Source: Escherichia coli (GTDB lineage Bacteria > Pseudomonadota > Gammaproteobacteria > Enterobacterales > Enterobacteriaceae). Taken from it: a stretch of DNA of 951 nt. The DNA is taken from assembly GCF_003334385.1 (NCBI RefSeq), contig NZ_QOWN01000141.1. One strand, 5' to 3'. The translations under genes and the position numbers were made by a program. The first letter of the stretch is position 1. Each line of letters starts with the position of its first letter. Shown here one piece after another: positions 1 through 951 of this stretch. Below the pieces are notes generated by a model. The model was not told the origin of the DNA and did no database searches. It saw only the letters and a list, made by a program, of their open reading frames with translations.

Positions 1-45
1 CCCCTGCAGCGGGTCATAATAGCGGTGGCGGTTGTAATACAGGCC
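1..45 (-). other. Start of the Rhs repeat-associated core terminal motif ([15 protein letters not shown]), truncated by the window edge
   Basis: Seen in sequence: codons 303-317. Established knowledge: in Rhs, TcC and teneurin-type YD proteins the YYxxRxRYYDPxxGR motif immediately precedes the conserved DPxGL core boundary, after which the variable C-terminal toxin begins. Confidence 0.8.
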
Positions 46-951
46 GGACTCCTCATCATACTGCTGCCCCGGCAGGCGGATAAGCTGCTGCAGCTGATGC
101 GGGTTCTCTTCATTCAGCAGGTTGCCCCATTCATCATATTCTGCGCACCACGCTGTTGCCCCTTCCGTGCTGATGAGCGCCAGCGGCAGGCCGCGATGGT
201 CGCAGTGGTACAGGTGGATTTTTCGCGCCGGCGTGTACACCGGGTCCATCTGGTTTTGCATCTGCTCCACGGTCAGGCCGCACGATGCCAGCCAGCGGCG
301 GCTTTCCTCACTCACCCGGTCAGCCAGGATTTCACTTTCCAGCCGGTCGAGCATCTGCACCAGCACCGGCGGGAACACCACACTGCCACCGTCTTCGCCG
401 CCGGACTGCTGAAGGGTATCCGCCAGGCTGCGGCGCTGCGTTTTCGCCAGCTCACCGGTGGCGGTTTCAACCCTGATGAGTGGCGTGAAGCTCCCCGGCT
501 GATAAATCGTCTGGATGCGGGTTCTGTCGTTCTGTATCGTGGTCAGGCGGTCGCCGTCCCAGCCGTACCAGGTCACTTGCGGTTTCCGTGACAGCGACAT
601 CCAGCCCGTCAGGTCCCGTTCACGCCGCCACACCCGTTTTGCCACCCTGCGGCCCAGCGGGTCGTAAAGATAGCGACTTTCGACCAGCGGCTCTTCATAT
701 TGTGTCCGCGTGTAGTGCACCAGCCGGTGCTGACTGTCGTAATGGTACCGGTGAGTCCGCTCATCATCCGTGCGGATAACCCCTTCCGGGATGAGGTCGG
801 TTTTCTCTGTCAGCCTGCCGTGACGGTCATACCGGTAAAGATAGTGCGCGTCACGGGCGATACGGTTATCCGGCCACATGCTGAGGGTGCTGTCCGGGTG
901 CAGCTCCGGGTCGGGCAGGCGGTTACCTGCCGGGTCTGTGGCATACGGGAT
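1..951 (-). CDS. rhs: Rhs-family protein (YD-repeat polymorphic toxin core), internal fragment; 5' and 3' ends both outside the window
   Basis: Seen in sequence: the reverse complement read in frame from position 951 gives 317 codons with no stop: [317 protein letters not shown]. It contains repeated YxYDxxGRL-type (YD) motifs and ends in the RYYDP motif typical of the Rhs repeat-associated core. Established knowledge: this motif series matches the enterobacterial Rhs core as I recall it. The paralog (rhsA, B, C, D type) cannot be resolved from 951 bp, so the symbol is given at family level only. The ORF track lists no minus-strand ORF, presumably because this frame has no stop inside the window. 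Confidence 0.93.
115..144 (-). other. YD-repeat motif (protein level): [10 protein letters not shown]
   Basis: Seen in sequence: codons 270-279; YDxxGxL pattern. Confidence 0.65.
187..216 (-). other. YD-repeat motif (protein level): [10 protein letters not shown]
   Basis: Seen in sequence: codons 246-255; Y-x-x-D-x-x-G-L spacing matches the YD repeat. Confidence 0.65.
241..420 (-). other. YD-free segment within the Rhs core (Gly/acidic stretch followed by a helix-prone stretch)
   Basis: Seen in sequence: codons 178-237, [60 protein letters not shown], contain no YD motif, unlike the flanking sequence. Inference: the composition (L, E, R, Q rich after a GG-E-D-GG stretch) suggests a helical insert interrupting the beta-rich repeat array. 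Confidence 0.5.
544..570 (-). other. YD-repeat-like motif (protein level): WYGWDGDRL
   Basis: Seen in sequence: codons 128-136; a degenerate YD repeat with W substituting for Y, in aromatic-x-aromatic-D-x-x-x-R-L form. Confidence 0.55.
652..672 (-). other. YD-repeat motif (protein level): YLYDPLG
   Basis: Seen in sequence: codons 94-100, followed by RRVAKRV; a YDPxG-type YD variant. Confidence 0.7.
721..747 (-). other. YD-repeat motif (protein level): YHYDSQHRL
   Basis: Seen in sequence: codons 69-77; YD core followed by a basic residue and L, the same pattern as the neighbouring repeats. Confidence 0.7.
811..843 (-). other. YD-repeat motif (protein level): [11 protein letters not shown]
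   Basis: Seen in sequence: codons 37-47 of the minus-strand frame; fits the Y-x-Y-D-x-x-G-R-L consensus of Rhs/YD repeats. Confidence 0.75.

Follow-up and report, generated by a model that had tools for sequence, protein, structure and literature searches.

The Window and Its Gene

The DNA analysed here, called the window throughout, is a stretch of 951 nucleotides (nt) from a contig of Escherichia coli (NZ_QOWN01000141.1, assembly GCF_003334385.1). By its sequence, the window comes from the interior of a clade-I (RhsA/B/C-type) Rhs core gene of Escherichia, encoded on the minus strand. Its G+C (GC) content is well above that of the host. The reading that we favor, on balance, is that the synonymous part of this excess is the unequilibrated legacy of a GC-richer compositional regime, carried by a core gene that was acquired long ago and has been inherited vertically since.

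Minus-strand frame 0 is the sole stop-free frame of the six. It runs as 317 codons across the whole window (1..951, minus strand), with neither a start nor a stop inside, and on the basis of the open frame and its homology it is taken to be an internal fragment of an Rhs core open reading frame (ORF). The 317-residue translation matches the NCBIfam model NF041261 (RHS_core) from end to end at 691 bits, over model positions 913-1229 of 1261. The equivalog cut-off of 2000 bits is set for the whole protein and is out of reach for a fragment; the full-length homologue from E. coli strain H8, described below, scores 2,647 bits. The translation also matches TIGR01643 (YD_repeat, E=2e-7), with weak matches to Pfam RHS_repeat. 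Pfam PF03527 (RHS) is found at residues 245-281 (E=5e-16), and TIGR03696 at residues 272-316, where it scores 37.6 bits against a cut-off of 32.5 over model positions 1-42 of 76 and is cut by the window end. A first-pass annotation, made from the letters of the window, had called it an Rhs element, and the RHS_core, Pfam RHS and TIGR03696 matches bear out that identity.

The closest match found by megablast among 5,426 complete E. coli genomes is the rhsA locus of strain H8 (L001 12001-12951), at 99.8% nt identity. The two base differences are both synonymous, and the proteins are 100% identical over the 317 residues. The window corresponds to codons 899-1215 of the 1377-residue Rhs protein encoded at the H8 locus, where the gene sits between yibF and yibA. 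Positions taken from this full-length homologue place the first DPxGL of the DPxG-x18-DPxG aspartyl-protease motif 5 codons past the window end and the junction of core and tip 32 codons past it. The PxxxxDPxGL / DPxG-x18-DPxG motif, which the homologue reads as DPIGL...DPLGL, is outside the window, which lies wholly within the conserved core. Given that the tip is absent, the window cannot be assigned to rhsA, rhsB or rhsC in particular.

Parts of the Core and Their Likely Function

Residues 1-164 (460..951, minus strand) form the last YD-repeat strands of the Rhs shell, as judged from TIGR01643, the weak RHS_repeat matches and structure alignment. This part aligns to residues 863-983 of Tse5 (8cp6) and 1179-1313 of 8qjc. 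Residues 241-317 (1..231, minus strand) are the start of the RHS repeat-associated core domain, which is the C-terminal plug, as marked by PF03527 and TIGR03696. Between the last shell strand and the plug, comparison with structures and with the family places an insert of about 75-80 residues (residues ~165-240; 232..459, minus strand), for which Pfam and NCBIfam scans give no domain of its own. At the same point the solved Rhs structures have 27 residues (Tse5) and 3 residues (8qjc). The insert is found in E. coli RhsC and RhsD, is shorter in Burkholderia Rhs, and is absent from the Ralstonia, IncC-plasmid and Vibrio Rhs proteins. It is acidic and helical in appearance, and its DNA takes in the most GC-rich stretch of the window, with 240-nt windows of 63-65% GC.

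The last shell strands and the plug can be aligned with Tse5 (8cp6), the Salmonella bongori Rhs core (8qjd), P. protegens RhsA (7q97) and Tse15 (8uxt), with E values from 7e-25 to 1e-13. These solved effectors of the type VI secretion system have low sequence similarity to the window protein and do not have the insert of ~75-80 residues. YD repeats build a cocoon round the C-terminal toxin, and an aspartyl protease in the plug frees the toxin inside the cocoon (PMC10684867). This mechanism of encapsulation and self-cleavage belongs to the solved effectors, and the protease motif itself falls outside the window. By analogy with these relatives, the core would encode a β-cocoon of YD repeats that encloses a variable C-terminal toxin, and a C-terminal plug with aspartyl-protease activity would cut the toxin loose just downstream of the window. 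Delivery of relatives of the window protein is by type VI secretion.

Base Composition Against the Host

The whole window is 62.0% GC, and each 240-nt sub-window falls between 60.4% and 64.6%. The first-pass annotation had counted 145 G+C in the first 240 nt and supposed that the remainder was similar; the count is exact (60.4%), and the sub-windows agree with the supposition. Over the 317-codon frame, GC at the first, second and third codon positions (GC1, GC2 and GC3) is 66.6/43.8/75.7%.

The background consists of 117 annotated genes (111,867 nt) drawn from two sources, the flanks of the H8 locus and five 24-kb regions of E. coli K-12 that were chosen arbitrarily. Gene GC in this set is 0.517 +/- 0.039 with a maximum of 0.564, against 0.620 for the window, and gene GC3 is 0.552 +/- 0.063 with a maximum of 0.680, against 0.757. 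None of the 117 genes reaches the window by either measure. Among 1,501 background windows of 951 nt, GC is 0.509 +/- 0.038 and the maximum is 0.593, such that none reaches 62%. The comparison of GC and GC3 with host genes, which had been suggested as a check, thus places the window outside the whole background set.

The same excess is seen at the homologous locus in H8, where the flanks are ~51% GC and the core is ~62%. In 300-nt bins, GC is 57-67% across the core and then falls to 46% and 39% in the tip. The borders are steps, from 0.49 to 0.65 at the start of the core and from 0.62 to 0.41 and 0.35 at the tip, and the Escherichia albertii locus has the same pattern. The proposal that Rhs cores are GC-rich relative to a host of about 51% therefore holds for this gene.

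In outline, the GC signature of the Rhs core is already known from the literature. In the account of Jackson et al. 2009 (PMC2935791), who cite Hill and co-workers, a G+C-rich core joined to an A+T-rich tip is established. As that account has it, the compositional difference between core and tip and the inference of foreign ancestry both date from the Hill laboratory in the 1990s, and were revisited by Jackson et al. 2009 (PMC2935791). The window has no substantive difference from the core of the E. coli RhsA-B-C-F subfamily ("clade I", NF041261): it is 98-99.8% identical at the nt level to annotated rhsA/rhsB/rhsC cores, and the composition is alike, with a core of ~62% GC and a tip of 39-46% GC. 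RhsD of E. coli K-12, from the RhsD-E subfamily, has the same architecture and the insert of ~80 residues before the plug, and its core, at 63.3% GC and 75.4% GC3, resembles the window in composition but shares just 77% nt identity over the core. The clade II rhs gene SMA1610 of Serratia marcescens likewise joins a GC-rich core to an AT-rich tip (67.7% versus 46.4%), although it comes from a different clade and genus (PMC2935791).

Codon Usage

The first-pass annotation had also pointed to codons that are rare in enterobacterial core genes. The positions given for them in the minus-strand frame are all correct: AGG at codons 46 (814..816), 102 (646-648) and 160 (472-474), as read from the codon listing, AGA at codon 143, ATA at codon 139 and CGA at codon 243. 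The window protein is 10.7% Arg, with 34 Arg codons and 12 Ile codons. AGG, at 3 of the 34 Arg codons versus 1.2% in the background, is the sole named codon that is enriched (P=0.008, uncorrected for multiple tests). Given the numbers of Arg and Ile codons, AGA (P=0.48), ATA (P=0.44) and CGA (P=0.87) are as frequent as expected, and the six named codons together compare with 3.6 expected. The strongest anomaly is a codon that had gone unmentioned: CGG accounts for 11 of the 34 Arg codons versus 9% in the background (P=1.5e-4).

The codon adaptation index (CAI) against 25 ribosomal-protein genes, a comparison that had likewise been suggested, does not separate the window from ordinary genes. 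Its value of 0.436 stands at the 55th percentile of the 117 background genes, which have a mean of 0.447. The scaled chi-square of synonymous usage is 0.474 versus a background mean of 0.173, and 1 of 64 background genes is as extreme. In short, the gene is compositionally odd yet not poorly adapted by CAI. The argument from rare codons stands for AGG, fails for AGA, ATA and CGA and for adaptation, and is weak overall.

Sources of the GC Excess

A protein with the amino acids of the window and the synonymous usage of background E. coli genes would be expected to have 55.0% GC and 56.4% GC3, as compared with the observed GC of 62.0%. Background coding DNA is 52.4% GC, which leaves an excess of 9.6 points in the window. 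Amino-acid composition therefore accounts for roughly a quarter of the excess, and synonymous codon choice for roughly three quarters. Arg, Asp, Tyr, Pro and Thr are plentiful in the shell; Lys, Phe, Ile, Ala and Val are scarce. The synonymous part is a preference for codons that end in G or C, CGG and AGG included. Part of the excess is thus no sign of foreign origin.

Rhs cores were also compared with their flanks on five replicons. The Rhs core on a Vibrio plasmid is 46.0% GC with a flank of 41.1%; on an IncC plasmid, 56.9% and 52.7%; in E. coli H8, 61.7% and 51.8%; on a Burkholderia chromid, 64.7% and 62.1%; and on a Ralstonia megaplasmid, 70.7% and 67.4%. The offsets between core and flank extend from +2.7 to +10 points of GC and from +7 to +20 points of GC3, in a sample of five replicons only, four of them plasmids or chromids, with flanking GC3 taken from crude ORF calls. 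The E. coli offset, at +10 points, is the largest of the five. The tip is GC-poorer than the core on all five replicons.

Age of the Core at the rhsC Site

A core of the same kind is found in E. albertii, with kdpD-kdpC-kdpB-kdpA-ybfA upstream, which is the order at the E. coli rhsC locus. The E. coli and E. albertii loci align collinearly in a single block of 7,856 nt (92.3% identity), which extends from kdpB through ybfA and takes in the whole core, with the junction unbroken. Third-position identity between the two species is 0.843 for the core, within the range of 0.763-0.879 for the four kdp genes. Of the 5,426 E. coli genomes, 5,424 have the kdp flank, and their copies are 90-95% identical to that of E. 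albertii. The collinear locus and the flank-like third-position identity indicate that the core predates the split at this site; judged from these alignments, the common ancestor of E. coli and E. albertii already had it at the rhsC site. This fits the view of Jackson et al. 2009 (PMC2935791) that clade I is older than E. coli and that the rhs family is ancient.

In the E. albertii rhsC orthologue (L004 11048-11188), ~46 residues follow the DPLGL junction versus ~130 in the H8 protein, and DNA of 30-41% GC comes next. This end may be a truncated or decayed toxin tip.

The direction of change since the split was addressed with polarised substitutions between the E. coli and E. albertii cores, with K-12 rhsD as the outgroup, and with kdpA+kdpB as a control, polarised by an Enterobacter outgroup at a similar distance. 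At third positions of the core, GC-to-AT changes stand to AT-to-GC changes as 39:16 in E. coli and 51:19 in E. albertii. The corresponding control counts are 49:17 and 63:13 (Fisher P=0.69 and 0.16). The ordinary kdp genes are equally skewed, and the test was rejected as evidence of amelioration specific to the core. It is uninformative because the outgroups are saturated at third positions and GC-rich, such that the composition of the outgroup sets the direction.

A two-state decay model based on third-position divergence would predict that ~15% of the GC3 excess has been lost since the split. If the acquisition was old, the excess should thus still be there, and its persistence gives no date for the event. 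Core GC3 is above 70% in both E. coli and E. albertii.

Distribution, Copy Number and Mobility

The core is matched in 3,888 of the 5,426 complete E. coli genomes (megablast), and nearly all matched places have at least 95% identity. The matched genes are annotated as rhsA, rhsB, rhsC or "RHS element core protein". Matched genomes have 1-14 places, with a median of 5, and 28% of genomes have no match. By this measure the core behaves as variable, accessory DNA. Given that the core is ancestral at the rhsC site, the variable copy number and the absences reflect later duplication and loss. The first-pass annotation had regarded the window as part of an accessory element; this is apt for presence and copy number, but the composition does not imply an element that is recent or currently mobile.

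Chromosomal sequence holds 20,063 of the 20,066 places in E. coli. No genuine plasmid with a core of this clade was found in the plasmid collection, whose matches are either tiny contigs or pieces of chromosome (0.28-4.8 Mb) that have been wrongly labelled. True plasmid Rhs proteins, for example those on IncC plasmids, are ~31% identical to the window protein. Similarly, no genuine phage with the core was found in the phage collection, where the matches are unannotated fragments of 2-3 kb or record ends of 180 nt. The 12-kb flanks of the H8 rhsA locus have neither an integrase nor a tRNA gene. Remnants of an H-repeat transposase are present downstream of K-12 rhsC.

A scan of one genome per species finds the core in E. 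albertii only, together with small, contamination-like contigs in unrelated metagenome-assembled genomes (MAGs) and draft assemblies. Such a scan detects close relatives alone and is silent on distant donors.

Several of the matched records deserve separate mention. Contigs of 0.5-2.7 kb from a Candidatus Nanosynbacter MAG, a Lachnospiraceae MAG, a Terrisporobacter draft and an Oscillospiraceae MAG (L005-L008) match DNA of the E. coli rhs core, of the tip and of yibA at 94-100% identity, and are probably E. coli contamination of those bins and assemblies. Two Campylobacter phage records, MG065686.1 (1-187) and MG065691.1 (173936-174114), have ~180 nt of E. coli rhs core at 96% identity at the record end, which looks like an artefact of assembly or contamination. 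The rhs core and the kdp operon are both found in the PLSDB entries NZ_OL790696.1 (4.8 Mb), CP061270.1 (1.2 Mb), CP099174.1 (1.3 Mb) and others; these non-mobilizable records of megabase size are evidently E. coli chromosomes, whole or in part, that have been classed as plasmids. The 404-kb plasmid NZ_AP023206.1 of E. coli has a gene for an "RHS element core protein" at 363787-364721, which shares only 76% identity with the window and is of a different Rhs subfamily.

Other Features of the Window and Its Reference Locus

A plus-strand ORF of 188 residues (25..591), found by ORF listing, was considered as a gene and rejected as an antisense shadow of the GC3-rich coding sequence on the opposite strand. 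The in-register antisense frame meets a single stop over the 951 nt, as TTA, CTA and TCA are almost unused in the sense strand (0, 0 and 1 times). Shadow ORFs of this sort are typical of GC3-rich genes. The window has no Chi sites, no repeats beyond short matches at chance level and no Rfam family.

Downstream of H8 rhsA (L001 13461-16907) is an array of 31-49% GC, with yibA (a HEAT-repeat gene), two orphan fragments of rhs core end and tip, yibG (Sel1 repeat) and a frameshifted Imm57 immunity gene. Orphan toxin and immunity cassettes are known to be arranged in this way.

Weighing the Explanations

The first-pass annotation had taken the composition as a sign of horizontal acquisition, and the simplest form of that claim is that the window marks a recently acquired mobile or accessory element. 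Its atypical composition, its variable presence (72% of genomes, with 1-14 copies) and the H-repeat transposase remnants downstream of K-12 rhsC would all suit a recent arrival. This is nevertheless very improbable, given that the synonymous divergence of the E. albertii positional orthologue matches that of the genes that flank it. The near-total restriction to the chromosome within E. coli, the plasmid and phage matches that are not genuine, the distance of true plasmid Rhs proteins and the ordinary CAI tell against it as well. Therefore, the composition does not indicate recent transfer, and the claim of horizontal acquisition survives in an ancient sense alone, in which the composition fits a GC-richer ancestry. 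The annotation had also allowed that a host genome near 60% GC would leave no anomaly to explain. We give this almost no credence: the matches at 99.8% are all in E. coli, the flanks are 51% GC, and the species scan gave E. albertii and contamination-like E. coli contigs only. That proviso falls because the host is a genome of ~51% GC.

The account we prefer is thus that the core would be a legacy of a GC-richer compositional regime that has yet to equilibrate with the host, which is the most likely cause of the synonymous part of the excess. Since the common ancestor of E. coli and E. albertii, the core would have passed down by vertical inheritance, with duplication to several loci and loss from some strains. 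Several results weigh against this account. We infer the cause of the synonymous excess, and the decay test designed for it failed its own control, given that kdpA+kdpB gave the same skew. The species-representative scan, which reaches close relatives alone, identified no donor lineage. Finally, core GC exceeds flank GC on 5 of 5 replicons that span 41-67% GC, and core GC tracks host GC. This pattern, which is suggestive only, accords no less well with a family-intrinsic bias than with a relic of transfer.

A bias of that kind would make the GC excess a property of the Rhs core family, kept up in every host by a continuing process, and no leftover of foreign origin; we consider this possible, if unlikely. 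The process could be GC-biased gene conversion, with the many paralogous cores and orphan pieces of core as partners, or selection that acts on the repeat region as DNA or mRNA; we hold either with the same reserve. In addition to the five replicons, on which the tip is always below the core, the S. marcescens core and tip (67.7% versus 46.4%; PMC2935791) fit this explanation. So does a finding reported by Jackson et al. 2009: within a clade, rhs genes from different genomes differ in composition, while genes of separate clades are alike within a genome. The GC3 of more than 70% that has been kept in the E. coli and E. albertii cores since the split would be expected, and a median of 5 copies per E. 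coli genome provides ample substrate for gene conversion. However, the E. coli offset of +10 points exceeds those of the other four replicons by a factor of two to four, such that something extra is needed there. The comparison covers just five replicons, four of them plasmids or chromids, with a crude flanking GC3; the two-state model predicts a loss of ~15%, so that persistence needs no maintaining force; and no direct sign of biased conversion was obtained.

Implications

The results for the Escherichia core serve mainly as cautions. A few "rare" codons in an Arg-rich protein are no evidence of poor adaptation. An amelioration test based on polarised substitutions can give a spurious positive result unless ordinary genes serve as a control. 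A GC excess of 10 points can last in a gene at a fixed site since before a species split. Given that this excess has persisted at one chromosomal site for that time, composition alone does not date transfer.

More tentatively, and with rather low confidence, an excess of GC that follows host GC may be common to the whole family of Rhs cores, and it is possibly maintained actively, for example by GC-biased gene conversion. If this is true, the classical inference from a GC-rich core to a foreign origin would be wrong for Rhs, and Rhs cores would be a natural system for measuring biased conversion in bacteria.

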